Shown here piece after piece: positions 22,709 to 41,500 of a DNA stretch of 64,000 nt. Position 1 is the first letter of the stretch; each line of letters begins with the position of its first letter. The position numbers and the translations under genes were made by a program. Source of the DNA: an uncultured Clostridium sp. (GTDB taxonomy: Bacteria; Bacillota_I; Bacilli_A; RF39; UBA660); NCBI GenBank assembly GCA_946402315.1, contig CAMIWC010000006.1:812-64811 (forward strand). The letters run 5' to 3'. Below the pieces are notes generated by a model. That model worked only from the letters and a program-made list of their open reading frames with translations. It searched no databases and was not told the DNA's origin.

Positions 22709-24076
22709 ATGAAAAAGAAAATATTATTTAGTGTATTCTTAGTAGCTTTGTTTTTTGTACCATTTTTTGCTCGTGCTGATGAGTTAACTGCTGAAACATT
22801 TGCAGAATTAAAAGAACTTAATACGACTAATACTCATGTAACCTATACAGGAGCTACTTTGGATTTAACTGAAGATTTTGAATTAGTTGCTTTCTTAGAT
22901 ATTAAAGCTAATACTACACTTAATCTAAATGGACATACTTTATCTATTTCTGGACATGGTACTCAAGCTTATCCAGTAACTGTATTTGGTAATAGTTCAT
23001 TAACAATTAATGGTGCTGGTAATGTTCAAATAGCTGATATTTATGGATTTGCTACTGCTGGTAGTGGAAGTCCTAAAATAACTGTTAATGGAGGTACATT
23101 TACTCAAACTGGAGATTATTATATGTTTGGAGTATATGATGGAGAACTAATTATTAATGATGGAACATTTACTACTCCATATTGTGTAGCTAATAACTTT
23201 GGTGGTTATTATAGAATTCAAGGTGGTCAATATAGTGATATTCATGGAAAGATAACAATCAATGGTGGAACATTTACTACTACTGATGATTATGATATGA
23301 CATTTGCTACTTCAGATGTTTTAGTAATTAATGGTGGAACTTTTAATTCACAAGGTGAAGAGGGAACTACTGTTTATACTGAAGCTCCAGGAGAAACTAC
23401 TATTAATGATGGAACATTTAATGCTAGTGGAACTAATTCAGAAGTATTATATAATGACCAAGGAACAGTTACAGTTAATGCTGGAAACTTTAATAATCCA
23501 GTAACTGCTTATATTCCTAATTCATCAATAACTTATACTAATACTACTGGTGTTAATATAGTTGTTCCTAAAGATGAATTAGTTATTAAAGCTTTTGATG
23601 AACCAACTGATCCAACTGAAGAAGAAACAACCAAAGTAAATGCTGCATTAGAAGAAGGATTTGTAGTTGGTAAATATTACAATATTACTGCTTGGTTAAC
23701 AAATCCGGATGATAACACTAAAATTGAACAAGTAGAAGATTTAGAAAACGCTATTAATGTTACTTTAACTATTCCTGCTGATCTTCCTGAATTACAAGAA
23801 GGTTATACAAGAATTTTTAAAGTAATTAGAATACATAATGGTGAAGCAACTGTACTTAGTGTAGTAGATAATGGAAATGGTACTATTACATTCCAAACAG
23901 ATGTTTTCTCAACATATGTATTAACTTATGCTGATCAAGCACCAGCTGCTGATCCAGCAGAAGATAATACTAATAACCCTAATACTGCTGATAAGATTAT
24001 TCTTTATTTCAGTGCATTAGTTATTAGTGCAGCAGCCGTTACAATAACTGCTTTATATATTAATAGAGTATATTAA
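22709..24076 (+). CDS. Cell-wall-anchored beta-solenoid surface protein with an NPNTA sorting signal
   Basis: Signal peptide; repeated NGGTFT/NDGTFT turns. C-terminus is NNPNTAD (NPNTA at nt 23975-23989), a TM segment (IILYFSALVISAAAVTITALYI) and NRVY. A class-B sortase gene lies immediately downstream. Confidence 0.75.
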   Translation: MKKKILFSVFLVALFFVPFFARADELTAETFAELKELNTTNTHVTYTGATLDLTEDFELVAFLDIKANTTLNLNGHTLSISGHGTQAYPVTVFGNSSLTINGAGNVQIADIYGFATAGSGSPKITVNGGTFTQTGDYYMFGVYDGELIINDGTFTTPYCVANNFGGYYRIQGGQYSDIHGKITINGGTFTTTDDYDMTFATSDVLVINGGTFNSQGEEGTTVYTEAPGETTINDGTFNASGTNSEVLYNDQGTVTVNAGNFNNPVTAYIPNSSITYTNTTGVNIVVPKDELVIKAFDEPTDPTEEETTKVNAALEEGFVVGKYYNITAWLTNPDDNTKIEQVEDLENAINVTLTIPADLPELQEGYTRIFKVIRIHNGEATVLSVVDNGNGTITFQTDVFSTYVLTYADQAPAADPAEDNTNNPNTADKIILYFSALVISAAAVTITALYINRVY

Positions 24077-24130
24077 TAAAAAAATAATAGGCTAGCTTGT
24101 GCTAGTCTATTTTTGTTAGGAGAAGAGTAT

Positions 24131-24898
24131 ATGAAACGAAAAAAAGTTTTAAGAGTCCGTTTATGGGTTCTAATGTCAGTCATATGTGTAAGTTTATTTG
24201 GAGTAATATACTCTACAGTGAACATACTTCTATGGTGTTATAATGTTGAACAAAATAATAAGATTAGAGCTGAAATAAAAGAAGAATACGTTGAAGAAAT
24301 AATAATAGATCAAAATATTTCTGGTGTAGTTCAAAATGATTATTCAATTGATTTTGATTCGGTAAAAAAACGTAATAAAGATACAGTTGGATATTTAGTA
24401 GTTAATGGACTAGATGTATCTAATTTTATAGTTAAAGCTAAAGATAATGATTACTATTTAAAACATAATTTTGATAAGAAATATAGTTCTGCTGGATGGA
24501 TATTTGCTGATTATCATAATAAGTTTGATGGTAGTGATAAGAATATTATTATATATGGACATAATACTAAAAATGGAAGTATGTTTGGTACGTTGAAAAA
24601 TATATTTAATAAAGAATGGTATAGTAATGAAGATAATCTTGTATTGAAAATTATCACTCCAACTGGAGAATATAAGTACCGAGTATTTTCAACGTATACT
24701 ATTAAACCAGAAGATTATTATATAAATACTGAGTTTAAAAATAATAAAGAATATATTAAATTTGTAGAAACATTAAAGAAAAGATCTACTTATGATTTTA
24801 AAGTAGATACATCGAAGGTAACTCAAATACTTACGTTATCTTCATGTAGGAAAGAAGGAAAAGAAAGAGTAGTATTACATGCGATGAGACTAGATTAG
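24131..24898 (+). CDS. srtB: Class B sortase
   Basis: Start at ATG 24131 after aggaga. N-terminal TM segment. Motifs DTVGYLVVNG..., DNDYYLKHNF, IIIYGHN (His) and the catalytic LTLSSC. Confidence 0.85.
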   Translation: MKRKKVLRVRLWVLMSVICVSLFGVIYSTVNILLWCYNVEQNNKIRAEIKEEYVEEIIIDQNISGVVQNDYSIDFDSVKKRNKDTVGYLVVNGLDVSNFIVKAKDNDYYLKHNFDKKYSSAGWIFADYHNKFDGSDKNIIIYGHNTKNGSMFGTLKNIFNKEWYSNEDNLVLKIITPTGEYKYRVFSTYTIKPEDYYINTEFKNNKEYIKFVETLKKRSTYDFKVDTSKVTQILTLSSCRKEGKERVVLHAMRLD

Positions 24899-25004
24899 TC
24901 TCATCTTTTATTTTGATTGAAATTATTATGTTTTTTATTTATTTATCTTTTAATACATGATAAAATATATTATGAGTTAAAATCTAAAATAGAGGGTGAT
25001 TATT

Positions 25005-25541
25005 ATGAAAATTATTAAGACTATTGTTGTGGATACGTTAATAGGTATATGGTTCTTAGGAGCTTTAATATCTATTATATGTTTATTATCCTACAATGAG
25101 TTTGCGACTACTCAAATCGGTAACTATACATTGCTTATTATTGATAGTGATGATATGCAAGAAAAATATGGATATAAAGAAGGAGACTTACTTATTGTAA
25201 AAAGAACTTCTGATAAGAATATGAAAGTAGGAGATTCTGCTTTCTATTATGATGCCAGTAAGAAGAGTTCGGTACTTGTATATGCTGGTGAAATAGAAAG
25301 TATTACTCCAGTTACTCCAGCTGAATCTACTTTTAGAATTAGTGGAGTAAAAGTATCAGGAGAATATGTAATAGGTACTATGAATAAAGTAGGGGTATAT
25401 CATCATGCTGGTACTGTACTTAGTGTAATGACTTCTAAATGGGGATTTATGTTCTTTATCATATTCCCAACTTTATTCTTCATAATATATGAAGTAATGA
25501 TGATAGTTGAATCATTTAGAGAAGATAAGGATGAAGATTAA
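25005..25541 (+). CDS. SipW-like (S26B) signal peptidase paralogue lacking the catalytic Ser and His (pseudo-peptidase)
   Basis: It has the same length class and TM-core-TM topology as the two active paralogues at 26117 and 32231. However, IIDSDDMQEK replaces SGSMEP, VYAGEI replaces THR[IV] and SGVKVSGE replaces GDANN/GINN. Confidence 0.6.
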   Translation: MKIIKTIVVDTLIGIWFLGALISIICLLSYNEFATTQIGNYTLLIIDSDDMQEKYGYKEGDLLIVKRTSDKNMKVGDSAFYYDASKKSSVLVYAGEIESITPVTPAESTFRISGVKVSGEYVIGTMNKVGVYHHAGTVLSVMTSKWGFMFFIIFPTLFFIIYEVMMIVESFREDKDED

Positions 25542-25543
25542 TA

Positions 25544-26092
25544 ATGAAAAAAGTGCTTTGGATATTTGCACTATTTTGTCTACTTGCAACTATTATAGTT
25601 GTTCAAGATACTTTTGGATTATTTGAAACTAATTCAACCGCAACTAAAGACTTGGAAGTTGGTAGATGGAAGATATATCTAAATGATGAAGATATATCAT
25701 TAACTGAATCTATTACTTTGGATGATTTCGTTTATACTAATCCTAATCATGTAGAAAGTGGTTATTTTGCACCAGGAAGTAGTGCTGAATTTATTATAGA
25801 AATAGATGCTAGTGATACTGATGTAGCAGTAGACTATGATATCACAGTAGATGCTAGTTCGCTACAACCATATCCAAATATATCTTTTAGTATTATTGAT
25901 ATGGATACTAATCAATCATCTATTAATAATCATTTCTCTGGAATAATGAATTTAACTGATACTAATCGTGTTAAAAGATTAAAACTTAGTATTAACTGGG
26001 TTAATGATTCTGATTATGATGAAAACGATACTAGTATCATTGGACAAGATATTAAATTTATTTTAGATGTTCACTTTGAACAACACGTTTAA
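25544..26092 (+). CDS. TasA/camelysin-like secreted protein (small paralogue)
   Basis: There is a 2-nt gap after the previous gene. The signal peptide ends ...VVQDTFGLFETN. Further elements are GRWKIYLND, FAPGSSAEFIIEIDASDTDVAVDYDITV and a C-terminal FILDVHFEQ. Confidence 0.55.
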   Translation: MKKVLWIFALFCLLATIIVVQDTFGLFETNSTATKDLEVGRWKIYLNDEDISLTESITLDDFVYTNPNHVESGYFAPGSSAEFIIEIDASDTDVAVDYDITVDASSLQPYPNISFSIIDMDTNQSSINNHFSGIMNLTDTNRVKRLKLSINWVNDSDYDENDTSIIGQDIKFILDVHFEQHV

Positions 26093-26116
26093 AAAGAATA
26101 GAAAGTGAGGTGTCAT

Positions 26117-27028
26117 ATGAACCCGCTTAAAAAAGGTGTAAAAACAGTTTCTAATCTATTAACTGTAGGTTTGTTAATAGTATTAGTGCTTGTTATATAT
26201 GGTCGTTTAACGGTAACATTTTCAGAAAATAGTTATCCTAACTATTTCGGATATACATTTTTTGAAGTATCAAGCGGATCTATGGAACCTGCTTTATCTG
26301 TTAATGATGTAATCTTAGTTAAGATTGGATATGACAATTATAAAAAGGGAGATATTATTACTTATGTAAATGATAAAGGAGAAATAATAACTCACCGTAT
26401 AGTAATAGTTAATGCTGATACATTAACTGTTAAAGGAGATGCAAATAATACTATCGATACACCAATTCAAAAATCACAAGTAATTGGTAAAGTAGAAAGG
26501 GTTTATCCACAACTTAGTGTTTGGCAAAAAGTTATTACTGAACCCAAAATATTAATGGTATTATTTATTACTCTTCTAGCTTTTGATTTTGCTCTTTCTT
26601 ATGATGGAGAAAAGGATAAAGGTAAGAGTACTACTAAGAAAAAAGTAATTATTAGTAAAGAAAAAGAAGAGAAAAAAGAATTAGAAGAAATAAAAGAAAT
26701 AGAAGAAAAGAAAGAAAAAGTTAAAGAAAATAAAATAACTTCTGTTAAACCTGAAACACCTAGAATAAAAGTAAATGATTCAATAGATGTTGATGCATTA
26801 CTTGATTTTACTAAAAAGATAGATTTAGAAGAAATTAATAAAGCGCTTGATAAAACAGTTAAATTAAATAAAAAGGAAATGACTGAATTAAAAGAAAAGA
26901 TAGATAGTATTGATGAAAAGAAACCAGTACTACCTAAGTTAGAACAAAAAGAAAGGGAATTTATTGAATATACAATTAGATTAGATTTAAAAGCTATTCA
27001 AAAAAATGTTAAAAATAAAGGGAAGTAG
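26117..27028 (+). CDS. sipW: SipW-type signal peptidase I (S26B) with a long K/E-rich C-terminal extension
   Basis: Start at ATG 26117 after gtgaggtg. Elements are an N-terminal TM segment, SSGSMEP, ITHRIV, KGDANN..D and a second TM segment. About 150 aa of a lysine/glutamate-rich predicted helical tail follow. Confidence 0.8.
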   Translation: MNPLKKGVKTVSNLLTVGLLIVLVLVIYGRLTVTFSENSYPNYFGYTFFEVSSGSMEPALSVNDVILVKIGYDNYKKGDIITYVNDKGEIITHRIVIVNADTLTVKGDANNTIDTPIQKSQVIGKVERVYPQLSVWQKVITEPKILMVLFITLLAFDFALSYDGEKDKGKSTTKKKVIISKEKEEKKELEEIKEIEEKKEKVKENKITSVKPETPRIKVNDSIDVDALLDFTKKIDLEEINKALDKTVKLNKKEMTELKEKIDSIDEKKPVLPKLEQKEREFIEYTIRLDLKAIQKNVKNKGK

Positions 27029-27036
27029 GTGCGAAT

Positions 27037-27624
27037 ATGAAAGAATTATTAAATAATTTTGATAGAAAAATGTTATTTCGTTTATTAATTCTTTCATGTA
27101 TGGTAATTATTACAATGCTTTCTGTAAGACATTTTAAGTTTACTGAATCTAAATATGAAACTAGAACTGAAGTAGAAATAGTACCAACTATAGCTTTCTT
27201 TATAGCTGATGTTAAAAGTTATAATGATTCTATTAAGTTAGAGGAAATAGTACCTAGAAGTACTCCTTACTTATATTCTTTTACAGTATCTAATTTCCAA
27301 GGAGATAAAAAAGCTAATGTAGATTTAACTTATAGTATTGAGTTTATTACTACAACTAATTTACCTTTAAATTATAAATTATATAGAGGTAATGACTTAG
27401 AACATGATATTACTTCTAGTACTAGTTATACTACTGATGACGATGGAATGTATTATAAACGTTTATATATAAGTGAAGTATCTACTTTAAGATATAATGC
27501 AGAGAATACCGATACTTATGTTTTAAGTGTAGAGTATCCTTTAACTTATCAAAATAATCCTGATGATTATTCTGGAGTAGTAGAACTAATAGAAATATAT
27601 GTTCATGCTGAACAGGAAGTGTAA
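27037..27624 (+). CDS. TasA-like / membrane-anchored beta-sandwich paralogue
   Basis: N-terminal hydrophobic segment ending SVRHFKFTES. Further elements are YLYSFTVSNFQGDKKANVDLTYSIEF and a C-terminal IEIYVHAEQ. Confidence 0.45.
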   Translation: MKELLNNFDRKMLFRLLILSCMVIITMLSVRHFKFTESKYETRTEVEIVPTIAFFIADVKSYNDSIKLEEIVPRSTPYLYSFTVSNFQGDKKANVDLTYSIEFITTTNLPLNYKLYRGNDLEHDITSSTSYTTDDDGMYYKRLYISEVSTLRYNAENTDTYVLSVEYPLTYQNNPDDYSGVVELIEIYVHAEQEV

Positions 27625-27626
27625 TT

Positions 27627-28592
27627 ATGAAGAAGTTAAAGTTAAAAGACAATGGTGTTAAAAGAATTATTATCTTAGTACTTATAATTATACTTGTAAT
27701 ATCTATACCTACTTTAGGTAAGTTTATCTCTAAAAAATTCCATGAATTCTATTTAAATAGTAAACATTTCTATTTTTATAGTAATAGATTAAAAGAAGAT
27801 AATCCTTTATATCAAGTTAATAACTGGTCAGGAGTAGGTTCTTTTGAAATAGAATTTGATTTATCTTCAGAAAAAAACAGATATACTTATGCAGATTATG
27901 ATATTGAATATGAATTATCAGTAGAATGTTCAGATACAGTTAATTGTGAATTAAGTGAAGAAGACGGAGTACTATATAGTACTAATCCAAATCACCAAAA
28001 TACTATAACAGTTTCAGTTACTCCTGATAATGTTAGCTTTGAAGAGGGAGATAGTGTTACCATTGAAATAACTGCTCAAAGTACAAGTCCTTACAAGAAA
28101 ACTATTAGTGCAACGTTTGAATATATTGTAGGTAAGAGTGGAGTAACATATGAAATAGATGATGAACCAGGAAGAAGTTATATTATACTTACATTAACTA
28201 ATGCTATTTCATATTGTACTGTTGTTGAAGACTTCGGAGATTATGAAGTGGGAGATCGTATAGATAGAGATGTTTTTGTTACTTTGAATTCTAATGATAG
28301 AAAAAAATGTAAAAGTCAAATTATTAATCTTTCTATTCCGACTGGATATGTCATTGTAGATAATACTAGTTCTATTTTTGATATCGCAACTTATTCAGCT
28401 CCATCAGGAGGGCCAATTATTGGTGGAATTCGTTATATTAATAAAATGGAGTTCTGGATTGATCCATCTAGTGCACTAGCTATTAGATTTTATAAAAGAG
28501 ATGTTGATGAAGATTATACTTATCCTTTTGGAAATTATGAAAATAGTATTATAACTGTTACTATTTCAGATCCTGATAGAGATAGAGGATAA
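27627..28592 (+). CDS. TasA-like / membrane-anchored beta-sandwich paralogue (larger)
   Basis: N-terminal TM segment (RIIILVLIIILVISIPTLGKF), then SFEIEFDLSSEKNRYTYADYDIEYELSV and a beta-rich remainder. The gap from the previous stop is 2 nt. Confidence 0.4.
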   Translation: MKKLKLKDNGVKRIIILVLIIILVISIPTLGKFISKKFHEFYLNSKHFYFYSNRLKEDNPLYQVNNWSGVGSFEIEFDLSSEKNRYTYADYDIEYELSVECSDTVNCELSEEDGVLYSTNPNHQNTITVSVTPDNVSFEEGDSVTIEITAQSTSPYKKTISATFEYIVGKSGVTYEIDDEPGRSYIILTLTNAISYCTVVEDFGDYEVGDRIDRDVFVTLNSNDRKKCKSQIINLSIPTGYVIVDNTSSIFDIATYSAPSGGPIIGGIRYINKMEFWIDPSSALAIRFYKRDVDEDYTYPFGNYENSIITVTISDPDRDRG

Positions 28593-28604
28593 TTGGAGGT
28601 ATTT

Positions 28605-29582
28605 ATGGACTATAATATAGTTTTAAAATATATTTCATTTGTAAAAAGAGAATATTTAGACTTTTTTAGTATTTTGTTCCGTAATAAATACCAAAAGAAG
28701 TTATTTGAAGAATTTATGGATTCTTATATTCTTGTTCGTTATTATAATGAAACTGATTTTCATAATGAAAAAGATTTCATGGTACGTATTAATAAGGAAC
28801 TAATTAAAATATATGAAAAAAATAAAAACATATATGATGAAGATTTATTAAGAAATATAGTAGCGTTATTTGCTTATGTAGTATACTTTGATGATGTATA
28901 TGAAGATGAAAATAGTGCTAGTTTAATAGATGATTTAGTACAAGATGAAAATATTCAGATTAAAGATAAAGAAGAATTAAAAGAACAATTACTTGATTGG
29001 TACTTAGATCTTAAAGAAAATAAAGAAAAGTTTCATAATACTATTAATACGAAAGAGTTCTCTATCTTTAAGAAGAGAGTAAGTACTAAGACTTATGAAA
29101 TTACTCTTGATCATAATGTAAAGATTTCTAATCTTTATAGTGATTACGCTATTAATAAGGCGTTTAATAGTCAAATAGTTAATGAAGATAAAGAGTTTGT
29201 TATGGCAATACTTACTAGTCATGAAGTATTAAAAAATGCTATTAACTTAGATTTTACTAAGAGATATATTTTTGAATTAGTACCATCTATTGTTGAAAAA
29301 GAGAAAAAAATGAAAAGATTATTCTCTATCTTAGATAATCCTTTATCTAAAAGATATATATCTGCTAAAATAACATATGAAGATTATTTAAATAATAAGA
29401 GTATATATGATAGTTATATAGTAGATGGATATTCATTCTCTGTAGTAATTGATTCTAAGTTTAAAGGAAATATTAAGAGTTTAGTATTATTTACTTATAT
29501 TTATATATCAGAGAATAATGAATATTATAAAGATATAGTTAATGCTAAAAAGGAGCTTATGCCAAAAATAATTGTATATTAG
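28605..29582 (+). CDS. Cytoplasmic protein of unknown function inside the SipW/TasA-like operon
   Basis: Start at ATG 28605 after ggagg. No TM segment or signal peptide. The protein is helical, Y/K/E/D-rich and carries no recognisable motif. Confidence 0.5.
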   Translation: MDYNIVLKYISFVKREYLDFFSILFRNKYQKKLFEEFMDSYILVRYYNETDFHNEKDFMVRINKELIKIYEKNKNIYDEDLLRNIVALFAYVVYFDDVYEDENSASLIDDLVQDENIQIKDKEELKEQLLDWYLDLKENKEKFHNTINTKEFSIFKKRVSTKTYEITLDHNVKISNLYSDYAINKAFNSQIVNEDKEFVMAILTSHEVLKNAINLDFTKRYIFELVPSIVEKEKKMKRLFSILDNPLSKRYISAKITYEDYLNNKSIYDSYIVDGYSFSVVIDSKFKGNIKSLVLFTYIYISENNEYYKDIVNAKKELMPKIIVY

Positions 29583-29591
29583 GAGGTATTT

Positions 29592-31118
29592 ATGGATACT
29601 TTTTTAAGATTTTTATATGAATTTTTATCTCAGTTTTTTGGAGGATTTATTCTATTCTTTAGAGGATTATTTAAAGGTTTAGGAATGATGTTTAATTTCC
29701 CTGCTTACCTTGAAATAATTCATGAGTATAAGAAGGATTTATCAATGCCAGAATGGATACTTGTATTTATTGCGGTATTAATAATATTATTAGTACTTGG
29801 ATTAATTGTATTCATGGTAGTGTTCTTAATCCGTAAATACATTAGAATACGTAAGTCATTAGTAGATCAAGAGTCCCTTCTAGAAGAAGTTGCTAATTTA
29901 AATAATGAAGTAGCTAAACTTTATAAAGAAAAAGAAGAAATACTTTCTATGAAAGTATCCAAGTTAGGACTTAAACCAACTGAATCTGATACTGAAGAAG
30001 AAAGTACTAGTTCTTCTGATAATACTGTTGATACTAATGATATTAGATTCCCTAAATTATATGAAGTTGATCAAAAATATGCTAATTATAAAGTACAAAA
30101 CTACAACAATGCCTTTGACTTGCCAGAATTAGTAGATATGTTTAGAAACTTTGCTGCTAGTGAATTAAGATTGTATTATCGTGAAAAGATGATTCGTTTA
30201 TTTATTGCGGCATTATCTTCAACTAAACTCGTAATTCTACAAGGTATTTCTGGAACAGGTAAAACTTCACTTGCTTATGCTTGGGGAAAATTTTTAAAAC
30301 ATGACTCTTGTATCGCATCTGTTCAACCATCTTGGAGAGATCGTACTGAGTTGTTTGGATATTTCAACGAATTTACTAAGAAGTTTAATGAAACAGAAGT
30401 ATTAAAAGAGATATATCAAGCTGGATATACTGATGATGTATATACAGTTATCTTAGACGAGATGAACATCTCTCGTGTTGAGTACTATTTTGCTGAAATG
30501 TTATCAATACTAGAGATGCCTAATAAAGATGAATGGATTGTTGAAATTGTTCCTAGTGCATGGAAGAGTGACCCAGTTCATTTAATTGAAGGTAAAATGA
30601 AGATACCACCTAATGTATGGTATATCGGTACAATCAACAACGACGACTCTACATTCATGGTAACAGATAAAGTATATGACCGTGCTATGCCTATTGATAT
30701 TAACGATAAAGGAGAAGTATTTACTCCTAAAGAAATACCAGCTCAAGATATTAATTACTCGTATTTGAATAAGTTATTTGAAGATGCTATAAATAATTTC
30801 CCAATTCATGAAGATGTACTTCAAAAAGTAGATGAAATGGATGACTATGTTATTAAGCATTTCCGTATAGCTTTTGGTAACCGTATTGTTGCTCATATGC
30901 GTAAGTTTGTTCCTGTATATGTAGCTTGTGGTGGAGATGAAATAGACGGAATAGATTACTTTATAGCTCGTAAGATTTTAAGAAAATTTGAACAATTAAA
31001 TATTGCATATATTAGAGATGAAATTGATGGCTTTGTTAAATTCCTAAATGATGAATTTGGTGAAGGAAAGATGGCTGAATGTATAGAATATCTATTAAGA
31101 CTTAAGAAAATGTCATAG
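29592..31118 (+). CDS. Membrane-anchored McrB-like AAA+ (AAA_5) GTPase
   Basis: aggagg RBS. Two N-terminal hydrophobic segments and a short coiled coil. Walker A GISGTGKTS, QPSWRDRTELFGY, Walker B VILDEMN, GTINNDDS at the position of the McrB N-x-x-D element, then DRAMPI. Confidence 0.75.
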   Translation: MDTFLRFLYEFLSQFFGGFILFFRGLFKGLGMMFNFPAYLEIIHEYKKDLSMPEWILVFIAVLIILLVLGLIVFMVVFLIRKYIRIRKSLVDQESLLEEVANLNNEVAKLYKEKEEILSMKVSKLGLKPTESDTEEESTSSSDNTVDTNDIRFPKLYEVDQKYANYKVQNYNNAFDLPELVDMFRNFAASELRLYYREKMIRLFIAALSSTKLVILQGISGTGKTSLAYAWGKFLKHDSCIASVQPSWRDRTELFGYFNEFTKKFNETEVLKEIYQAGYTDDVYTVILDEMNISRVEYYFAEMLSILEMPNKDEWIVEIVPSAWKSDPVHLIEGKMKIPPNVWYIGTINNDDSTFMVTDKVYDRAMPIDINDKGEVFTPKEIPAQDINYSYLNKLFEDAINNFPIHEDVLQKVDEMDDYVIKHFRIAFGNRIVAHMRKFVPVYVACGGDEIDGIDYFIARKILRKFEQLNIAYIRDEIDGFVKFLNDEFGEGKMAECIEYLLRLKKMS

Positions 31119-31127
31119 GTGATAATC

Positions 31128-32234
31128 ATGAAGGATATTAAGGTAGTAGATTTATATAAGAAAGCTAATGAAGATAGAGTAGATAAGTTTATCGAAAACA
31201 CTAGATCTAGTCTTATGGTTGATAAAGACTTAAAGAAAGTAGAAGTAGACTTTGAATGGTTAGATTTAATGGAAAATACTATTCAATATTTAGATAATAT
31301 TTTAAGAAATCCTAATCGTTTTATCATTAATGAAGAAGAAGTAGTTAAAGTAGAACTTGCTAGAAGAATTACTGTAGATAGCATTAAACATCTAGCTAGA
31401 CATACAAACTACATTCAAGAGATAAATGAAGATGATGAAGTAAAACCATCTAAGATTCTTAATATTAATAAAGATGAAAGTTATGATACCTATGAAAATA
31501 GATTTATCTTTACTCTTATTCAAAATATGGAAAGTTTTCTTGAAATTAAAAAGAAGAGTTTATTATTATCTTCTAGTTTAAGAGATGTTAAGAAATGTGA
31601 GTATCATGCTAAGAGTAAAGTAGGTCTAGAACAAATATCAATGGAGATTAATTTTACTTCTAGTTTGATTGATCAAAAAGAACCAGAAGGAGATACTCCT
31701 ATCGCAACTAGAATTCAAAGATTAGATGATAATATTAAAATGCTTACTAGTAGTGAAGTATATAAAACTTTAAAATCTATGCATGTTGCTAAAGTAATAC
31801 CTCCTATTAAAAAGACTAATGTTATTTTGAAAAATACTAACTTCCAATATGCAATGATATTATGGGATTACTTACAAGAACATGTTGCTGATGCTAGTAA
31901 AGTAGTTAAAGAAAACAAAAAATATGAAGATAATGGTATTCTTAAAGAATATATTAATAATACATTTTTGCTTAATTATTTAGCTATGAATACATTAAGT
32001 GAAGAATCTCCAATTAGTGATAGAGAAGAAGTTATAGAAGAACTTACTGATAACTTAATTCAAAAGATAGTAGAGTTAAATGTAGATTTACCTTTATCTG
32101 CACTTAAAGATAAAATTGGAGAAAAGATTGCAATTACTAAGTATAAAAAAGAAGCAAGTCTATATGAGATTCAAAATACATTTTCTGAGCATATTAAGAA
32201 TTACTTAGAAAAGATAGAAAGTATTAGTATATGA
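31128..32234 (+). CDS. McrC/DUF2357-like partner protein without an intact PD-(D/E)xK nuclease
   Basis: Start at ATG 31128 after aggtga. It carries the McrC-family D-T-x-E-N-R-F-[IV] element (DESYDTYENRFIFTLIQ). Near the C-terminus only a relic-like EKIAITKYKK is present, with no acidic catalytic residue. The stop overlaps the next start (ATGA). Confidence 0.6.
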   Translation: MKDIKVVDLYKKANEDRVDKFIENTRSSLMVDKDLKKVEVDFEWLDLMENTIQYLDNILRNPNRFIINEEEVVKVELARRITVDSIKHLARHTNYIQEINEDDEVKPSKILNINKDESYDTYENRFIFTLIQNMESFLEIKKKSLLLSSSLRDVKKCEYHAKSKVGLEQISMEINFTSSLIDQKEPEGDTPIATRIQRLDDNIKMLTSSEVYKTLKSMHVAKVIPPIKKTNVILKNTNFQYAMILWDYLQEHVADASKVVKENKKYEDNGILKEYINNTFLLNYLAMNTLSEESPISDREEVIEELTDNLIQKIVELNVDLPLSALKDKIGEKIAITKYKKEASLYEIQNTFSEHIKNYLEKIESISI

Positions 32235-32758
32235 AAAAAATATTTAGATTAATATTAATAATTATATTATTTATAATATTAGGAATTATTATATTTCAAA
32301 GAGTAACTCATAATAAATTAGCTCTAGGTAATTTTTATATTTTTGAAATTATATCTGGATCTATGGAACCGGTTTATAAAGCTGGGGATGTTATATTAGT
32401 TAGAAAATGTGATTATGAATCAATAAATATAGGGGATGATATTACTTATTTGGGTAGTGAAGGTAATTTAAAAGGTTTAATAGTTACCCATAGAGTAATA
32501 GAAAAGTTTGATTATGAAGGAAAACATAAGATAAAGACTAAGGGTATTAATAATGAAGTAGAAGATCCGGTTATAAATGCTGATCAAGTATATGGAAAAG
32601 TAATTTATAGGACAATTCTATTTAGTTTAATGGGTAAAATTATGACTAATAAGGTTGCTTACTTTATGATTTTTGCTAGTGTATCCCTAGTATTTTCTTA
32701 TGAGTTTATATCATATTTCTTCTTAGATAATGATGATGAGGATGATGAAGAAGAATAG
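32231..32758 (+). CDS. sipW: SipW-type signal peptidase I (S26B)
   Basis: N-terminal TM segment, ISGSMEP, VTHRVI, KGINNEVED, a C-terminal TM segment and an acidic tail DNDDEDDEEE. Confidence 0.8.
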   Translation: MKKIFRLILIIILFIILGIIIFQRVTHNKLALGNFYIFEIISGSMEPVYKAGDVILVRKCDYESINIGDDITYLGSEGNLKGLIVTHRVIEKFDYEGKHKIKTKGINNEVEDPVINADQVYGKVIYRTILFSLMGKIMTNKVAYFMIFASVSLVFSYEFISYFFLDNDDEDDEEE

Positions 32759-32784
32759 ATAGATAGAGTGTGGTGATGTTGTTC

Positions 32785-33414
32785 ATGAAAAAGAACAAGA
32801 AGAAGAAAAAGTTAGTTAGAATTCACCAATTATTGTTACTAATAATGTTACTTTTAGTTAATTCAACAGCGTGGTTTATTTATGTAAATACTGTTGAAAA
32901 TACTATGAATGTCCATGTTAAAGCTTGGGATGTAACATTTGAAGCGGGGGATTCGGAAATAGTTGATATGGTTGAAGTAACAGTAGATGATCTATATCCA
33001 GGAATGGATGATTATACTTATGACTTAACTGCTCATAACCGAAGTGAAGTTTCGGCAACTCTTACTTATGAAATATTACAAGCTAATATTTTAGGAGATC
33101 TTGTAATAACTAAAGAAGGTAGAGCAGAAAGACATGAAACAGCATTAGAAACAGATCCTACTAGTGCAGAACTTGAACTTCAATTAAAAGAAGATTATCC
33201 TTTTGAGATAACCTTCGATTTAACTAATTCTATTATGAACTCTGGTAATGGGAGTTCGGTTTATTCCGTTAATGTAGTTTGGCCTTATGAACAAGGTAAT
33301 GATGAACTAGATACAGAGTGGGGAATAGCTGCAGCTACTTATAAGAGCCAATATCCAGCAGAACCATCTATCGTTTTAATGATAAAAATAAAAATTACTC
33401 AAAATGCTAGTTAG
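32785..33414 (+). CDS. TasA/camelysin-like secreted protein
   Basis: Start probably at ATG 32785 (MKKNKKKKK), though 32776 is also possible. The signal ends LLLVNSTAWFIYVN. Further elements are KAWDVTFEAG, LYPGMDDYTYDLTAHNRSEVSATLTYEI and a C-terminal IKIKITQ. Confidence 0.55.
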   Translation: MKKNKKKKKLVRIHQLLLLIMLLLVNSTAWFIYVNTVENTMNVHVKAWDVTFEAGDSEIVDMVEVTVDDLYPGMDDYTYDLTAHNRSEVSATLTYEILQANILGDLVITKEGRAERHETALETDPTSAELELQLKEDYPFEITFDLTNSIMNSGNGSSVYSVNVVWPYEQGNDELDTEWGIAAATYKSQYPAEPSIVLMIKIKITQNAS

Positions 33415-34000
33415 CTTTTTGAGTAAAGTTAAGAGCGACTTTAACGCTTGCTACGCCGTTTGATGCAGCAGATGTATCAGCGGCATTATTCATTGTTTCT
33501 CCTGTACCATCATACCATTCAATGAAAATACGATAAGTATTATTATTGTTAGTATTAGATAGATTATGTGTTGTAGTGATAGTGTTGCTTGTACCATCGA
33601 ATAGGATAGTATCACCATCATTTATTTTATATCCAACTATTCTTAAATCAGAAATAGTATTATCATCTCCTGGAGTAATAGTAATAGTTTGATTATAAGA
33701 AACTTCTACTCTTGTTGAATCTATTACTAAATCAAAGTATCCAGTACTTGTAGGAGCGATTACACCAGTGCTGATATTATCATTAGCATCATAAGTAGGA
33801 ACTAAAGTATTAGTAAAACTACTTCCAGAGACAACGTCTATGTTATTAACTTTAAATGTCCATTCAGCAATTGTAAATTTACCAGTAGCGTTTGTTGATG
33901 AAACATATTTAGCGTATGATGTTTGCATCATTTCGATAAGAAGGCATAATAAAGCACAAGCAATTACTAATCTTATTTTACGATTATTAATTACATTCAT
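33407..34000 (-). CDS. TasA/camelysin-like secreted protein (convergent and separately transcribed)
   Basis: ggagg RBS on the minus strand. The signal ends EMMQTSYAKYVSS. Further elements are AEWTFKVNN, IAPTSTGYFDLVIDSTRVEVSYNQTITI and a C-terminal VKVALNFTQ. Its tail overlaps the 32785 gene tail-to-tail by 8 nt. Confidence 0.55.
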   Translation of the reverse strand: MNVINNRKIRLVIACALLCLLIEMMQTSYAKYVSSTNATGKFTIAEWTFKVNNIDVVSGSSFTNTLVPTYDANDNISTGVIAPTSTGYFDLVIDSTRVEVSYNQTITITPGDDNTISDLRIVGYKINDGDTILFDGTSNTITTTHNLSNTNNNNTYRIFIEWYDGTGETMNNAADTSAASNGVASVKVALNFTQKAN

Positions 34001-34221: not shown

Positions 34222-34935
34222 ATGGCAAGAGAAGTAGTTGTTAAAGCAGATCAAGTTAAGAAACGTAAGAGAAGATCAAGAATAATAAAGCTATCATTAC
34301 TTTTTTTACTGTTACTACTCACAGTGTTATATATAATTTTAAGAGTTATATATAACGAGGGTAGATTTACAATTACACTTGATTCTAATGATACTTTGAA
34401 AAGTGGACTTGCAATATTTGAGAGTTTAAATAATTCTCAAGGAAAAAGAAAACTTGAAGCAACACCGGTAAAATTTATGGATAACATATCTTATAAGTGG
34501 TTACCAGAAAATATTGATACAGAAGCTGATGGACCTCACAATGGTAAAAACTACATAGCATATAGTTTCTATGTGGAGAACCAAGGAGAAGAGGTACTAA
34601 ACTATTGGTATGAAGTATACATAGATGATGTTATTAAAAACGTTGATGAAGCTGTTCGTATAAGAATATACAGAAATGGTGAATATGTTACTTATGCTAA
34701 AAAGAATTCGTTGGCTAATGAACCTGAAGAAGGTACCGTAGCATTTAGAGAGGATGTTAAAAGTAAAGAAAGAATAGTCATACTGGAACAAGTAAAAGAT
34801 TTTAAACCAGACGATTTAGATCGTTTTACAATAGTAATATGGCTAGAAGGGGATGACCCTGATTGTGTTGATGCTATAATAGGCGGAGAATTAAAAATGC
34901 ACATGAAGTTTACTGAAGAACATATTGAAAATTGA
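34222..34935 (+). CDS. Membrane-anchored/secreted protein sharing a C-terminal W-[LI]-E-G-x-D-x-D-C motif with the next gene
   Basis: Basic N-terminus plus a TM segment (LSLLFLLLLLTVLYIIL). Also YAYSFYVENQGEEVLNYWYEV and IVIWLEGDDPDC. Confidence 0.5.
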   Translation: MAREVVVKADQVKKRKRRSRIIKLSLLFLLLLLTVLYIILRVIYNEGRFTITLDSNDTLKSGLAIFESLNNSQGKRKLEATPVKFMDNISYKWLPENIDTEADGPHNGKNYIAYSFYVENQGEEVLNYWYEVYIDDVIKNVDEAVRIRIYRNGEYVTYAKKNSLANEPEEGTVAFREDVKSKERIVILEQVKDFKPDDLDRFTIVIWLEGDDPDCVDAIIGGELKMHMKFTEEHIEN

Positions 34936-34949
34936 TGGGAGTTGAAAAA

Positions 34950-35957
34950 ATGAGTACAAATAAAAAGAAAAAAAGAAAAGAGAAAAAATTAAGATCATTA
35001 TTTCTACTATTATTTTTAACAATAATTATGTTAGGAACTGCAACTTATGCATGGTTCACAGCCAATCAAGTTGTAACAATTCAAGCTTTAGACTTACAAG
35101 TTGAAGCTAGTAATGGTCTACAAATATCAACAGATGCTGTAACATGGAAATCAGTAATTACTAATGCTGATATTACTACTGGAGCATATAGTGGTGCTGT
35201 TAACCAAGTTCCAACATCAGTTACTGCTGTATCAAGTGATGGTACTGTAACAAGTGGTAAGATGAATATGTACTTAGGTACAATTACAAATGACCAAACT
35301 ACAGGAGATTATCTAATCACTTCTACAAAACAAACTGATGTAGCTGGTTCTAATGGATACTACATTGCATTCGATGTATTCCTAAAAACTGATACAACTC
35401 AAGAAGTATTCTTAGCAGGAACTTCAAATGTAAGCCATAAAGCTGTTCAAATCGCAGGTACTGATGAAGAAACTACTGATAAAGGATTAAAGAATTCTGC
35501 TCGTGTAGGATTTGTAATTCTTGGTCATGGTGCTTCAACTGATTCAGTTAGTACATTAACTGGATTATCTAATGCTAATGCTACTAGTGCAATCATTTGG
35601 GAACCAAACTATACATCACATACATCACAAGCATTAATAGTTGCTGCTGAGTATGGTGTTACTGCATCAACAAGTTCAGCTACTGCTTATCGTGGATTAA
35701 ATAAAGAATTCTCTGAAGGTGATTTAAAGAAAACTGTTAAAGGAGAAGGTACAGAAGCAGGATATGCTACTGCTATGAGTCCAGCTATTCAAACAGCTGA
35801 AGGAAATACTGATAATCATTCATTCGCAACATTACAAGCAGGAGTTACTAAAGTTCGTATTTATATGTGGATTGAAGGACAAGATATCGATTGTGAAAAC
35901 AATGCAACTGGTACTGATATCTCATTCAACGTATCATTTACAACTGCAACATCTTAA
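34950..35957 (+). CDS. TasA-like secreted protein with a SipW-type signal peptide; candidate major subunit
   Basis: Start at ATG 34950 after gggag. N-terminus is MSTNKKKKRKEKKLRSLFLLLFLTIIMLGTATYAWFTAN, the class of signal described for TasA-type SipW substrates. The mature part is T/S/A/G-rich. Also YMWIEGQDIDC. A strong terminator follows directly. Confidence 0.6.
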   Translation: MSTNKKKKRKEKKLRSLFLLLFLTIIMLGTATYAWFTANQVVTIQALDLQVEASNGLQISTDAVTWKSVITNADITTGAYSGAVNQVPTSVTAVSSDGTVTSGKMNMYLGTITNDQTTGDYLITSTKQTDVAGSNGYYIAFDVFLKTDTTQEVFLAGTSNVSHKAVQIAGTDEETTDKGLKNSARVGFVILGHGASTDSVSTLTGLSNANATSAIIWEPNYTSHTSQALIVAAEYGVTASTSSATAYRGLNKEFSEGDLKKTVKGEGTEAGYATAMSPAIQTAEGNTDNHSFATLQAGVTKVRIYMWIEGQDIDCENNATGTDISFNVSFTTATS

Positions 35958-35966
35958 TAAGATTTA

Positions 35967-35993
35967 AAAGAAGGTTAATACCTTCTTTTTTTT
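35967..35993 (+). terminator. Intrinsic terminator closing the TasA-like locus
   Basis: Stem aaagaagg/ccttcttt with loop ttaata, then a T-run. Confidence 0.7.
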
Positions 35994-36897: not shown

Positions 36898-38406
36898 ATG
36901 AAAGATGCTTTAATAGAAAAATATGATGAATTTAAAAACGTTTTAGATGTTATGCCTACTAACAATAAAGAAAATAAACAAAAAAAATATGAATTTATAA
37001 AAGAAGAAGAAAACTTTAATGAAAAGTTTCTTAAATTAGTAAATGAAGAAATAGAATTAAGAAAATCTAGAATAAATAATCTAGTAGTAAATGAAGTTAT
37101 TTCAGAAAAAGAAAATGAACTAAATGGTTTAACATCTTTATTGTGGAATGAATATAATACTTCATATGAGAAATTAGAATTAGATTATTACTTATATAAA
37201 TTAACTAATTATAAAGACAATTTATCTAGAGTAAATGAATGTATTAGAAAGATTATAGATAATTTTAATCATGTAGGAATAGAAATAACTAGTAAGATGT
37301 TTAATTACAATAGATACGTAAGAGAATACATTGATACAGTACTAACTACTACAGATGAAGAATTATTAAAGACTAAGTTCGAAGAATTATATTGGAAATA
37401 TCCAGAATTAATTAAAACATTAGAAATTAGTTTTAAAGGGATTTATCTAAAGAATCAAAAGACTATAGATAAGTTCTACGATGATAAATATGCTGCTTTC
37501 TTAGCTAATAACAATGTTAAAGAAATAAAGAATAATATTATTAATCTTAGTGATGAAATTAAAATTCTTAAGAATAGTGATCCTGCTTTAATATTTGAAA
37601 AGTTTAGAAATAAAGAATATGCATTAACTACTTATAGTGGAGTAGCTATAGACAAGAAAAAGACTAATTATTTTGGAGATAATTTTTCATATGATAATTT
37701 AGTTAAATTATATAAATCTTTAAAAGAGTACTATCTAATTACTAAGTATGATTATATTTTAAAAGATATGAAAACTAGACTTGAAAATAAAGATACATAT
37801 AAAGGTAAAATGGATGCTTGCTTAAAAGATTTATTAAAAGTAGAAACTAAAGTAATAGGTCTTTCTGGATTAGAAGAACAAAAGAGTAAGTTCCCATTTT
37901 TTAAAAAGAAAACAGTACAAGATGATAAGACTTTATTTGAGTATAAGAATGCTTTAAACGAACTAATTGCTAAGTATAATGAATTAGATGATTTAAGATT
38001 TAATGATATTATCTCTAAAAAACTTGAAAAAGATAGTTCTATCTTAAAAGTATTTAATTTAATATCTGGAAATTATTTATATTTCTTAAATAGAGTACTA
38101 GAAAATGTAGATGGTATTAGTGTTGATGAAGTAGATAGATTATTTGAAGAATTAAATACTGAGATTATTAGTAGTAATTTTTACTTATTAGATAATACAG
38201 CTTTACTTGATGAAAAACAAATGAAAGAGTTAATAGTAGATCGTTATCGACTTGATAATATTAATATAACTACTGCTGCTTTAGAGAAAGAAAATATAGA
38301 AGGTACTATGGAAGATATTAAGACTCTTCTTAAGTATGAAAATATGGTACGTTCTGGTATTAAGTTTGAAGATATAGAGTTTATCTTAGAGTGTGATAAA
38401 ATGTGA
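36898..38406 (+). CDS. Cytoplasmic all-helical K/E/N-rich protein of unknown function
   Basis: 502 aa with no signal peptide or TM segment and no catalytic motif. A palindromic terminator (gtgatttt/aaaatcac) follows. Confidence 0.5.
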   Translation: MKDALIEKYDEFKNVLDVMPTNNKENKQKKYEFIKEEENFNEKFLKLVNEEIELRKSRINNLVVNEVISEKENELNGLTSLLWNEYNTSYEKLELDYYLYKLTNYKDNLSRVNECIRKIIDNFNHVGIEITSKMFNYNRYVREYIDTVLTTTDEELLKTKFEELYWKYPELIKTLEISFKGIYLKNQKTIDKFYDDKYAAFLANNNVKEIKNNIINLSDEIKILKNSDPALIFEKFRNKEYALTTYSGVAIDKKKTNYFGDNFSYDNLVKLYKSLKEYYLITKYDYILKDMKTRLENKDTYKGKMDACLKDLLKVETKVIGLSGLEEQKSKFPFFKKKTVQDDKTLFEYKNALNELIAKYNELDDLRFNDIISKKLEKDSSILKVFNLISGNYLYFLNRVLENVDGISVDEVDRLFEELNTEIISSNFYLLDNTALLDEKQMKELIVDRYRLDNINITTAALEKENIEGTMEDIKTLLKYENMVRSGIKFEDIEFILECDKM

Positions 38407-38504: not shown

Positions 38505-41500
38505 ATGCGTAAAAGAATTAGATTAAGAAAAGAAATATATGTAGTCTTTGGTATATTTATTACCATTCTTTTAGCATGGAAACTTTCTTCTACTTTAACT
38601 ACTAAAGTATCATCAGGAGCTTGGGATGGAGTAATTGCTACTTCATTTACTTCTGGTAATGGTACTGAAAATAATCCTTATATTATTAATAGTGCTGGAG
38701 AATATGCTTATTTTAAACAATTAATGGAATCAGAAGACGCTATATTATATGCTGATAAATATTATGAATTAAATATCAGTTTTGATTATAATGACTATGA
38801 TATTTCAATAAATAATACTGTTCCATTTAGTGGTACTATTGATGGTAAAAATAACTATATAACTAATGCTAAAGTAACTAATTCTATGTTTAATACTCTT
38901 GATGGAGCAACTATTAAAAACTTAGAACTAGATGATATAGAAGTAAATGTTACTGGAGAAACTGGTTCTTTATTTGCTTTATCTTCATCTAACAGTAATT
39001 ATTCATTCTTAATAGTAGAAGGTACTATTAGTATTGATGAAGAAAATGAAAATGTTACATCTATTTCTGGATTTATAGTTAGTGATAATGATTCTACTAT
39101 AGATAAAGTAATAGTTAATCCTAATTATAATAATATAAATAATGATTTAATTAGTTCGTTTATTACTAGTTCAAATAATACTACTATAGTAAATGCATTA
39201 GTTAAAGATGATGGATTAGATCTAATTAAAAATAATACTGAAACAGATATTACTAATCTTAATAGTTATGTAGTTGTAGGTAATGATATAGTACTTGATA
39301 TAGATTATTTAGATTCATATAAAACTGATAAATATGCAGTTGTAGTAGATGGTACAGAATTTAGTTTAAATATAATTGTTCCGGATACTTTAGGTAAGAT
39401 AGAAGAAAAAGAAATACCTAAATATACTCATTCTGTGACTAAAGGAGCTAGTTTTATTCCTTTACATGATTCTGGAGTAGATGGTACTACTGTATATGTA
39501 AATGATTTGGAAGCAGATTATAACTACTATATGGGTCTTAATTATACAACTAGTACTAATGGTAATGTACCTACACAAGTAAGCAAGAATCTATATAATA
39601 GTTCTAATTTAACTAAAGTACAAATAATTTATGATGGTGGGGATTTAGGAGTTAATAATACTGCTATTCATACTGGTAGAGTTTCTTATTTGTCTGGAGA
39701 AAATCATAATAAATTTGTTTATTATAAATACTACAAATATGATACAAGTAATAATACTTTAGATATAGAATTAATAGATAATCCGTTTTCTGGAAGACCT
39801 ACTGATATGGCTTTCAATGGATGGTATTCAGATGATTCTAATATAGAAGTATATCTTGATAAAACATTCTATGTATATCATGCAGTTATAAATGTTAATC
39901 CTAATACAGATTTCCAAGTTGTATCTTTAAGAGCTTCTTGGACTGGTGCTGATGTAGCTTATACATCTCAAAATAGTAATAACATTAATACAGCATTAGG
40001 TACTTTACCATCAGCTGGACTTAATGAATTAGATACAAAAGATGTTACTATTATTTATCATATTGATTTAGATAATTATCCAAACGGAGTTTATGTACAA
40101 AGAACTGTTAACTATAATGCTAGTCAAGCTGGATATTATAATTCTAGTGGCACTTTATTAACTGGAGTATGTACTACAAGAAGAGGATGTACTGTTTATG
40201 AAAGATTAACTAATGATACATATAACTCTAATACTACATACTATACTCTTGTAAATGGTACGATGAGATCTACTAATGTTGCTACTTATACAGAACAAAT
40301 AATTAATTATCATGATACTAATTACATAAATTTAAATATGGCTAATTTCTATGTAATGGATCATATAAATAATGGTGTATCTAGAAATGGATACTATGAC
40401 AGTAATGGTAATACATTAACTGGTAATTGTAATACTTATGCTGGATGTGATGTTTATCATAAGATTTTATATGATGAAACACATATTTATGATAGAGCTA
40501 ATACTTATTATTATTTAACTACTAGAGATACTAATATAGTTTATTTAAATAGTAGTAATACATCTACTTCTTGGACTAGTACTAAACCATTTACTTTAAC
40601 TAGTTATTATAATGGTACTGATTCTAGAAGTAATGCTTATTATGAATTAGGTACTTATAGTGGATATATAAAAGCTGTAGCTGATACAAGAATAGAGTTT
40701 ATTAGACTTTATTCAACTATGTCACATTCTAGTAATACTGTATCATCTACTAGTGGTACAACTGGTGGACTAATCTATGGTAATTCGAAGAATCTTAAAA
40801 TTGGTAGAGGATTAACTAGAAATGGTAACTATGTTAATGCTCGTATGGTATTAGGTACTACTAATACAGGAAATGAACAACCTAAATATCGTTTAATAGT
40901 AGAATCTGGTTGGTATAACTTTATGACTACTGGTGGTATTAATGGTAATTATACTTTATCTAGTTATGATATTACTGGTATTTATGGATCTGATTATGAT
41001 CGTGTTAAAAATGATAATAGTAAATTAGATGTATGGCATGCTTTATATGGTGATCGTGCCACAATTGTTAATTATGGAAACAATAATAATGATATTCATT
41101 ATACACAAATTGTTAAGAGTGGATTCTTTGGTTCACAATCAAGTTCTACAGGATACGCTACTGGTATATATGTAACATCTAACTCTAGTGGTGTTACTTA
41201 TAGTCCGATGGCTTTAATCGTTGAAGGTGGAAGAATCTGGGGTATTAATGGTGGACCAGGACCAGCTTCAGGAATGGGTAGTAGAAATGGAGCTTATATC
41301 TTTGTTAAAGGTGGTAATATTAATACTATCTTTGGAGGAGGAGCTTATCTTACTTCTTACTCATCACGTGTTATTCAAGTAACTGGTGGTACAGTAAATA
41401 ACTCTGTATTTGGTGGATCTAACGGATACATGTATGGTACAGGAAACGCTACTGGTACTAATGCAAGAGGAATTTTAAACGGAGATACATATTTATATAT

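Follow-up and report, generated by a model that had tools for sequence, protein, structure and literature searches.

What would a pair of proteins related to the restriction enzyme McrBC be doing in an operon for signal peptidases and secreted proteins? The question is raised by a 64,000-nucleotide (nt) stretch of contig CAMIWC010000006.1 (assembly GCA_946402315.1, from an uncultured Clostridium sp.), referred to here as the window, in which positions 29592-32234 encode an McrB-like protein and an McrC-like partner placed among genes for SipW-type signal peptidases and small secreted proteins. Based on sequence searches, residue conservation and gene neighborhoods, the pair is probably a cytoplasmic nucleoside triphosphatase (NTPase) ring with its plug, which would work together with the SipW paralogs to process and/or assemble the secreted subunits, and it is unlikely to be a restriction enzyme that cuts DNA. 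The locus fits CoCoPALM, a class of systems named by Bell, Makarova, Wolf and Koonin (eLife 2024, PMC11090510). The GC content of the window is ~28% and its nearest relatives are uncultured “Bacilli bacterium” assemblies from rumen and gut metagenomes (locus L001, 91% identity in the McrB-like protein).

The McrB-like gene, with AGGAGG upstream of its ATG at 29592, and the elements recognized in its product are as follows:

29592..31118, plus strand: McrB-like AAA+ NTPase of the NxD clade with an N-terminal transmembrane (TM) helix and a coiled coil (McrB homolog of CoCoPALM), 508 amino acids (aa)
29751..29831, plus strand: TM helix, aa 54-80, followed by RKYIRIRK on the cytoplasmic side (Kyte-Doolittle 19-residue mean 3.6; charge count)
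29841..29966, plus strand: short coiled coil, aa 84-125 (heptad registers; phmmer to designed coiled coils, E=3e-4)
30243..30269, plus strand: Walker A motif GISGTGKTS, aa 218-226 (G218, G221, G223, K224 and T225 invariant in an alignment of 24 homologs)
30447..30467, plus strand: Walker B motif VILDEMN, aa 286-292 (D289 invariant and E290 nearly so in the same alignment)
30636..30647, plus strand: signature N349-N-D351-D352 inside GTINNDDS, aa 346-353 (N-x-D conserved)

The first-pass annotation of this DNA, which had located the open reading frame (ORF), both Walker motifs and GTINNDDS as they are found here, took the latter for the N-x-x-D element of McrB proteins. In the 24 aligned homologs (31-60% identity) N349 and D351 are invariant, as are R364 and R431, but position 352 is occupied by D, E or Q, so that the signature is N-x-D. 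This form characterizes a clade of McrB homologs in which NxxD is shortened to a strictly conserved NxD (Bell et al., 2024, section 7), the next residue being in most cases E or another D. The AAA+ domain of Escherichia coli McrB (6hz4) was matched by aa 194-370 in a phmmer search (E=3e-4), and the match strengthened to E=2e-5 when a profile of the 24 homologs was compared with the PDB; Pfam AAA_5 was found in 23 of these homologs, the window protein itself being unmatched. The PADLOC profile PDC-M26A also matched the protein (E=1.8e-34), over the AAA+ core only, the best stretch covering profile positions 283-438 of 724. Altogether, this evidence indicates that the protein is a predicted McrB-type AAA+ NTPase of the NxD clade in which the Walker A and B motifs, the sensor Asn and the conserved Arg residues are intact.

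The first 150 aa of the protein are made up of an amphipathic segment, the TM helix, the coiled coil and an acidic linker. Two TM segments had been proposed for this region; the one at aa 54-80 is a clear helix, whereas aa 10-34 remain below 1.4 on the Kyte-Doolittle scale, contain R and K and are amphipathic, with no clear TM helix. The short heptad stretch noted at the same time is upheld by a moderate signal at aa 84-125 (8 of 12 a/d positions hydrophobic in the best register), in addition to the matches to designed coiled coils. Since RKYIRIRK follows the TM helix, the coiled coil and the AAA+ domain are placed in the cytoplasm, and a single TM helix and a short coiled coil are predicted to tether the NTPase to the cytoplasmic face of the membrane. 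Neither Pfam nor the make-up of the first 150 aa gave any indication of the DNA-binding/specificity N-terminal domain of canonical McrB. FtsB/DivIC families were not matched by Pfam in the window protein or its 24 homologs, though a TM helix and a coiled coil are present.

The second gene of the pair encodes the partner:

31128..32234, plus strand: McrC-like protein, 368 aa from the ATG at 31128, with a DUF2357 domain and a poorly conserved helical C-terminal half, nuclease-free
31203..31565, plus strand: DUF2357 match, aa 26-146, with invariant K109, E117 and Y122-E123-N124 (Pfam, E=2.1e-12)
31800..31847, plus strand: second conserved motif PPIKKTNVILKNTNFQ, aa 225-240 (P226, T230, N231, L234, N236 and F239 invariant)

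Membership of the partner in DUF2357 was assigned by Pfam only, with a score of 47 bits against a cut-off of 23, and the same annotation is carried by 120 of 120 partner homologs among the matches listed. The McrC-family element that had been recognized previously corresponds to the YENR motif, which is invariant in an alignment of 27 homologs (27-67% identity), as are W44, L89, L111 and Y159. All invariant residues are confined to the N-terminal two-thirds of the protein; past ~aa 250 the homologs have hydrophobic periodicity only, without conserved acidic or Lys residues. In agreement with the earlier failure to recognize a PD-(D/E)xK core, nuclease profiles (PF04411, PF10117, the PADLOC McrC models and NCBIfam) matched neither the window partner nor eight diverse homologs, and single-sequence and profile searches of the PDB with the family returned no nuclease. 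McrC itself was also unmatched in the PDB searches, because E. coli McrC falls in a different Pfam family. PADLOC contains no model that matches the partner, so the second component of PDC-M26 is unmatched in the window. An AlphaFold2 (AF2) model built with 28 homologs was poor (predicted local distance difference test, pLDDT, 58.6), and its best Foldseek match in the PDB was TolC (E=0.012), nothing meaningful. The partner keeps the DUF2357 domain and has no detectable nuclease, the latter being grounded in sequence and conservation, not in structure.

Two C-terminal segments of the partner were considered as nuclease candidates and rejected: IAITKYKK, initially interpreted as a nuclease relic, and KENKKYED (aa 261-268) are not conserved among the homologs.

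The C-terminal part of the partner differs in length among relatives. The window protein and its ~370-aa relatives have a short and variable helical C-terminus without a long coiled coil, and Clostridia-type relatives reach 450-875 aa with long EK-rich coiled coils. In six loci of the Oscillospiraceae or Ruminococcus type (L067, L068, L071, L073, L075 and L079) the McrC-like products have 709-821 aa, and their last ~350-450 aa are a highly charged EK-rich repeat (e.g., EKERIAKEKAKEKER), which suggests a very long cytoplasmic single helix or coiled coil.

The third component of the locus is a set of three SipW-like genes, searched with NCBIfam TIGR02228 (cut-off 51.85 bits):

24996..25541, plus strand: SipWa, SipW-like pseudo-peptidase, first gene after the hairpin at 24883-24905 (TIGR02228 E=2.9e-5, below cut-off)
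26105..27028, plus strand: SipWb, SipW-type signal peptidase with Ser, His and Asp intact (TIGR02228 E=8e-22, above cut-off)
32231..32758, plus strand: SipWc, SipW-type peptidase whose start overlaps the McrC-like stop (TIGR02228 E=4e-24, above cut-off)

Evidence for a physical coupling of these genes with the pair comes from the junctions. The stop codon of the McrB-like gene (TAG, 31116-31118) lies within a Shine-Dalgarno sequence (AGGTGA) and the ATG at 31128 follows 9 nt on, the stop codon of the McrC-like gene overlaps the start of SipWc in an ATGA at 32231-32234, as previously reported, and terminator-like hairpins at 24883-24905 and 35966-35989 flank the cluster. The McrB-like and McrC-like genes are therefore tightly coupled with the SipW-type genes and putatively co-transcribed with them.

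The arrangement is preserved well beyond the window. A scan of GTDB with one genome per species yielded at least 593 matches to the McrB-like protein, and the best 80 loci (54-91% identity) were examined by searching their ORFs with the window's own proteins. The McrC-like gene is directly downstream of the McrB-like gene in 79 of the 80 loci, the remaining one ending at a contig edge; SipW-like genes are present in 78, and in 67 of 71 the McrC-like gene has a SipW gene as its immediate successor, the spacing being within ±12 nt in most cases. The core order is SipW, McrB-like, McrC-like, SipW, with genes for small secreted proteins on the flanks. Among these 80 loci the taxon labels are Bacilli, Tenericutes, Mollicutes or Erysipelotrichaceae, and, for those below ~57% identity, Oscillospiraceae, Ruminococcus sp. 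CAG:488 or Acutalibacteraceae. Metagenomes were scanned with a class of relatives with four TM helices (4-TM) as seed, which together with a hidden Markov model census added ~45 loci of the type with one or two TM helices (1-2 TM), which have the same neighbors and, in most cases, SipW-like genes. The linkage with SipW reaches down to ~35-40% identity, and the gene order is constant over ~125 loci of two bacterial classes; across hundreds of species identity is 54-91% for the McrB-like and 27-90% for the McrC-like protein. The surroundings of the cluster are housekeeping and envelope genes (LDH, thymidine kinase, GlmS, an LtaS-like sulfatase, a Mur ligase, UvrD) and no defense island was seen. 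Altogether, the link of the pair with SipW and secretion genes is not accidental, and the proposals made from the window alone, that the two genes are an integral part of the operon and that they have a functional tie to the SipW and secreted-protein genes, are supported in the genomes as well as in the metagenomes. A phage origin of the family was considered and rejected, a scan of IMG/VR having yielded only three weak partial matches.

More distant relatives delimit the association. A search of 1.84 billion cluster representatives returned 8410 McrB-like relatives, of which 765 had E<1e-30; at the level of 90%-identity clusters more than 8000 were retrieved, the best 120 of them being 78-100% identical to the query. 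Typing of the N-termini in the best 150 of the 765 distinguished 1-2 TM proteins (the closest, 450-540 aa), 4-TM proteins (550-700 aa) and long soluble proteins (700-870 aa). The 4-TM proteins keep the same N-x-D pattern and usually have a SipW-like gene upstream, and a weak McrC-like gene is found downstream in several loci. SipW genes were not found beside the soluble relatives in the metagenome census. A tblastn search of plasmids with a 4-TM representative retrieved AAA+ core matches only, and no description of the 4-TM variant was found in the main text of the paper in which CoCoPALM was named (PMC11090510). In locus L093 (5559-15826; also L085-L104) the 4-TM McrB-like protein has ~600-620 aa; a SipW-like gene (312-343 aa) lies ahead of it, and behind it come a weak McrC-like gene (~400-460 aa) and then the ATPase and permease of an ABC transporter.

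The SipW paralogs of the window differ in their catalytic residues. In SipWa the column of the catalytic Ser is occupied by D (DSDDM vs SGSM) and that of the His by G, and most orthologs are alike; in SipWb the Ser, His and Asp are kept in 42 of 42 orthologs. SipWc had been described as an active SipW peptidase, and this holds for the Ser and His, which are retained, but not for the Asp position of the GDxN motif, which is Ile in the window and Ile, Val or Leu in 61 of 76 orthologs. The three paralogs have thus diverged into one that is intact, one without the Asp and one predicted to be catalytically dead.

The remaining genes of the cluster encode mostly secreted proteins, several of them related to each other:

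25544..26092, plus strand: secreted subunit-like protein, 182 aa, with a TM signal followed by an aromatic motif (hhalign to the 197-aa protein 100%, E=8e-41; also to the 195- and 214-aa proteins)
27037..27624, plus strand: secreted subunit-like paralog, 195 aa (hhalign to the 182-aa protein 98%, 197-aa 97%, 321-aa 96%)
27627..28592, plus strand: secreted protein, 321 aa, its N-terminal ~90 aa common to the 195-aa family (hhalign)
28593..29582, plus strand: cytoplasmic protein, 329 aa, directly upstream of the McrB-like gene (closer relatives only, not core)
32770..33414, plus strand: secreted subunit-like paralog, 214 aa (hhalign to the 182-aa protein 96%, 195-aa 96%, 197-aa 94%)
33407..34000, minus strand: secreted subunit-like paralog, 197 aa, convergent to the operon, with 8 nt in common with the 214-aa gene (hhalign)
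34222..34935, plus strand: membrane-anchored protein, 237 aa (C-terminal motif in common with the 341-aa protein; hhalign 98%, E=7.5e-14, 41 columns)
34932..35957, plus strand: 341-aa protein (probably 335 aa from the ATG at 34950), predicted beta-sandwich (AF2), followed by a hairpin

The 182-, 195-, 197- and 214-aa proteins are full-length paralogs (hhalign 94-100%), and more than 50 of the 80 loci preserve the inverted orientation of the 197-aa gene. The 237-aa protein, which co-occurs with the cluster across loci, and the 341-aa protein have in common a C-terminal W-x-EGQD-x-DCEN motif, and in most of the secreted proteins, whose N-termini resemble signal anchors, the initial hydrophobic helix gives way to an aromatic motif of the type [ST]-Y-A-[WK]-[FY]. 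These neighbors had been labeled TasA-like, an identity that found no support: no Pfam or NCBIfam family, Peptidase_M73 (TasA) included, matches any of the seven secreted proteins, profiles of two secreted families did not match TasA in the PDB, and a Foldseek search with the 341-aa model did not place TasA within the first 50 matches; the sole resemblance to TasA is the aromatic motif after the signal. The AF2 model of the 341-aa protein (pLDDT 80.3; predicted template modeling score, pTM, 0.80) is a beta-sandwich in which the segment after the signal helix is disordered, and its best fold match in the PDB is the Sulfolobus thread subunit 7pnb_A, a weak one (E=0.02, probability 0.66). In threads and TasA the strand left after cleavage by the signal peptidase is the donor strand (PMC9715654). 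It is reasonable to regard the secreted proteins as fiber subunits, the 341-aa protein being the candidate major subunit. Scans of the operon with Pfam, NCBIfam and PADLOC found no nuclease domain in any ORF. The cytoplasmic 329-aa protein, with 40 matching ORFs over the 80 loci, had no match in Pfam, PADLOC, NCBIfam or the PDB, and its identification as a degenerate EAL domain was rejected after an empty PDB profile search.

How might such a pair serve the secreted proteins? In McrBC the DUF2357-type domain is inserted as a plug in the ring formed by McrB, and hydrolysis is stimulated in this way. On the inner face of the membrane, the McrB-like and McrC-like proteins of the window may form a tethered hexamer and its plug, in which the NTP cycle would drive or gate the hand-over of subunits, their processing by SipW or their polymerization into a surface fiber, a role functionally analogous to that of the cytoplasmic ATPase of type IV pili. 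The pair would not restrict DNA; as already anticipated in the first-pass annotation, cutting is unlikely because there is no nuclease, the complex is tethered to the membrane and the DNA-binding N-terminal domain is missing.

Several considerations weigh against this proposal. Experimental evidence is lacking for CoCoPALM systems of any kind. To our knowledge, the SipW/TasA fibers and the archaeal donor-strand fibers need no cytoplasmic NTPase, and the need for energy is not obvious; likewise, we know of no McrB-type ring that acts on proteins or membranes. The closest PADLOC profile, PDC-M26A, is listed as a defense candidate, and given the poor model of the partner a degenerate nuclease-like fold is structurally possible. 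Finally, the subunits are not tied to TasA by sequence and are tied to the archaeal thread subunit only weakly, by fold.

A broader picture, which we put forward tentatively and regard as rather doubtful in its entirety, would make CoCoPALM an NTP-powered fiber-assembly machine of monoderm gut bacteria (uncultured small-genome Bacilli and Oscillospirales-type Clostridia). In such a machine an exapted ring and plug derived from McrBC would act across the membrane together with SipW proteins, both catalytic and pseudo-catalytic, and polymerize subunits of the donor-strand type, the 4-TM class beside an ABC transporter being a second variant. Should the role proposed above for the pair hold, the motor of a restriction enzyme would have been recruited to build surface fibers, an unusual exaptation of an AAA+ GTPase, and SipW-dependent fibers would for the first time be tied to an energy source in the cytoplasm. 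Very common among the abundant uncultured Firmicutes of gut and rumen, the system is also strongly conserved there, so that its fibers may play a part in adhesion or biofilm formation in these communities.

Among the alternatives to a ring that powers assembly, the one that survives best is that the pair is a regulator or positioning device and not a motor, either localizing the fiber machinery (for instance to the division site) through an FtsB-like TM helix and coiled coil or acting as a nucleotide-dependent switch that licenses SipW. The GTPase activity of McrB is slow and is stimulated by its partner, which is in line with a switch, and the presence of one SipW paralog predicted to be dead and another without the Asp suggests regulated or non-catalytic roles. 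A homology of the N-terminal region with FtsB was reported for CoCoPALM (Bell et al., 2024), but Pfam detected neither FtsB nor DivIC in the proteins analyzed here. Moreover, the coiled coil of the McrB-like protein is predicted to be cytoplasmic, together with the AAA+ domain, whereas that of FtsB is periplasmic. The data do not separate a switch from a motor, and we consider this explanation unlikely.

It can also be argued that the pair is a defense module, similar to restriction or abortive-infection systems, which, located at the membrane, senses phage or foreign nucleic acid and simply shares the operon of the fiber, for example because the fiber is a phage receptor. Its descent from McrBC, the PDC-M26A match, the name “component of viral defense system (DUF524 family)” given to a partner homolog in one source and the prediction of the sister CoCoNuT systems as defense systems (PMC11090510) would be consistent with this idea. 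However, searches with Pfam, NCBIfam, PADLOC and the PDB revealed neither a nuclease nor any other effector in the partner or the operon, the order of the SipW genes is fixed over the ~125 loci in two classes, the surroundings are housekeeping genes and the family is nearly absent from viral contigs; in addition, the very high sequence conservation departs from the patchy distribution typical of defense genes. Based on these observations a defense function seems quite improbable, and defense-system finders can mislabel such loci, as is seen from the match to PDC-M26A and from the “DUF524 viral defense” name. That the pair is a decaying, functionless McrBC remnant, as the loss of nuclease and DNA-binding domain might suggest, is so improbable as to be practically refuted by conservation, given that both ORFs are intact in 79 of the 80 loci (the exception lying at the contig end), that the catalytic residues are invariant and that the identities given above extend over hundreds of species.

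Other genes around the cluster deserve mention as observations in their own right. Upstream (22709-24898), a 455-aa surface protein ends in NPNTA, a hydrophobic segment and a basic tail, an arrangement that resembles the sorting signals of sortase B, and the next gene encodes a class B sortase (TIGR03064, E=8e-48). Each of the two genes has a terminator-like hairpin to itself, and no more than 2 of the 80 loci have the sortase together with the cluster. Downstream, a 502-aa helical, K/E-rich cytoplasmic protein without family match (36898-38406) has homologs near the cluster in many loci, and a 2615-aa protein (38505-46352) with an N-terminal membrane anchor and many repeats of the G-G-x-N type, whose homologs adjoin the cluster upstream or downstream in most loci, may be a giant fiber-associated adhesin.

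How does the locus compare with systems already known? With McrBC of E. coli and Thermococcus it has in common the McrB-type AAA+ core, the DUF2357-type partner with YENR and the position of the McrB gene as first of the two; it differs in having a TM helix and coiled coil instead of the DNA-binding N-terminal domain, NxD and not NxxD, a partner without the PD-(D/E)xK nuclease, and a place inside a secretion operon. The CoCoNuT systems are closer, as they belong to the NxD clade, carry a coiled coil N-terminal to the GTPase and often have McrC homologs without an active nuclease. They are soluble, however, and always accompanied by HEPN or other nucleases (PMC11090510), whereas in the window no nuclease was detected in the operon and the McrB-like protein is membrane-anchored and linked to SipW, a link that its soluble relatives lack.

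On the side of the fibers, the tapA-sipW-tasA operon of Bacillus subtilis and the archaeal bundling pili and threads likewise place a signal peptidase of the archaeal/ER type (TIGR02228) beside secreted beta-rich proteins. The post-signal aromatic motif is a further likeness, and so is the weak fold match of the 341-aa protein to the donor-strand-complemented thread 7pnb (PMC9715654). Those systems have no cytoplasmic NTPase, in contrast to the window, which also has three SipW proteins and about seven subunit paralogs. SipA (LepA) of Streptococcus pyogenes is another inactive signal peptidase homolog in a fiber operon, comparable to SipWa with its missing Ser and His, but it works with sortase-polymerized pilins and belongs to the bacterial P-type lineage of signal peptidase I (PMC4049620).

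The closest counterpart is CoCoPALM itself. The first-pass annotation had regarded the composition of the system as undescribed, but its architecture had been named, in two sentences that link it to pilus assembly and defer the analysis to a forthcoming paper (PMC11090510). An NxD GTPase fused to an FtsB-like TM helix and coiled coil, an McrC homolog and an association with signal peptidases are the features given there. The window has the NxD GTPase, a TM helix and coiled coil, an adjacent DUF2357 McrC homolog and signal-peptidase genes, and differs in that its McrC-like protein is the short 368-aa form without the long coiled coil, which is usual but not obligatory in the class (PMC11090510). 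A literature search turned up the 2023 preprint and the 2024 paper but no later work on CoCoPALM, no publication that connects DUF2357 with SipW and nothing further on PDC-M26. The locus thus belongs to a class that is already named and whose mechanism is yet unstudied. With respect to the main text of that paper, the three classes of SipW paralogs, the set of paralogous subunits and the SipW-linked 4-TM class are new, and the present analysis further adds the short and long forms of the McrC homolog and the numbers of the census.

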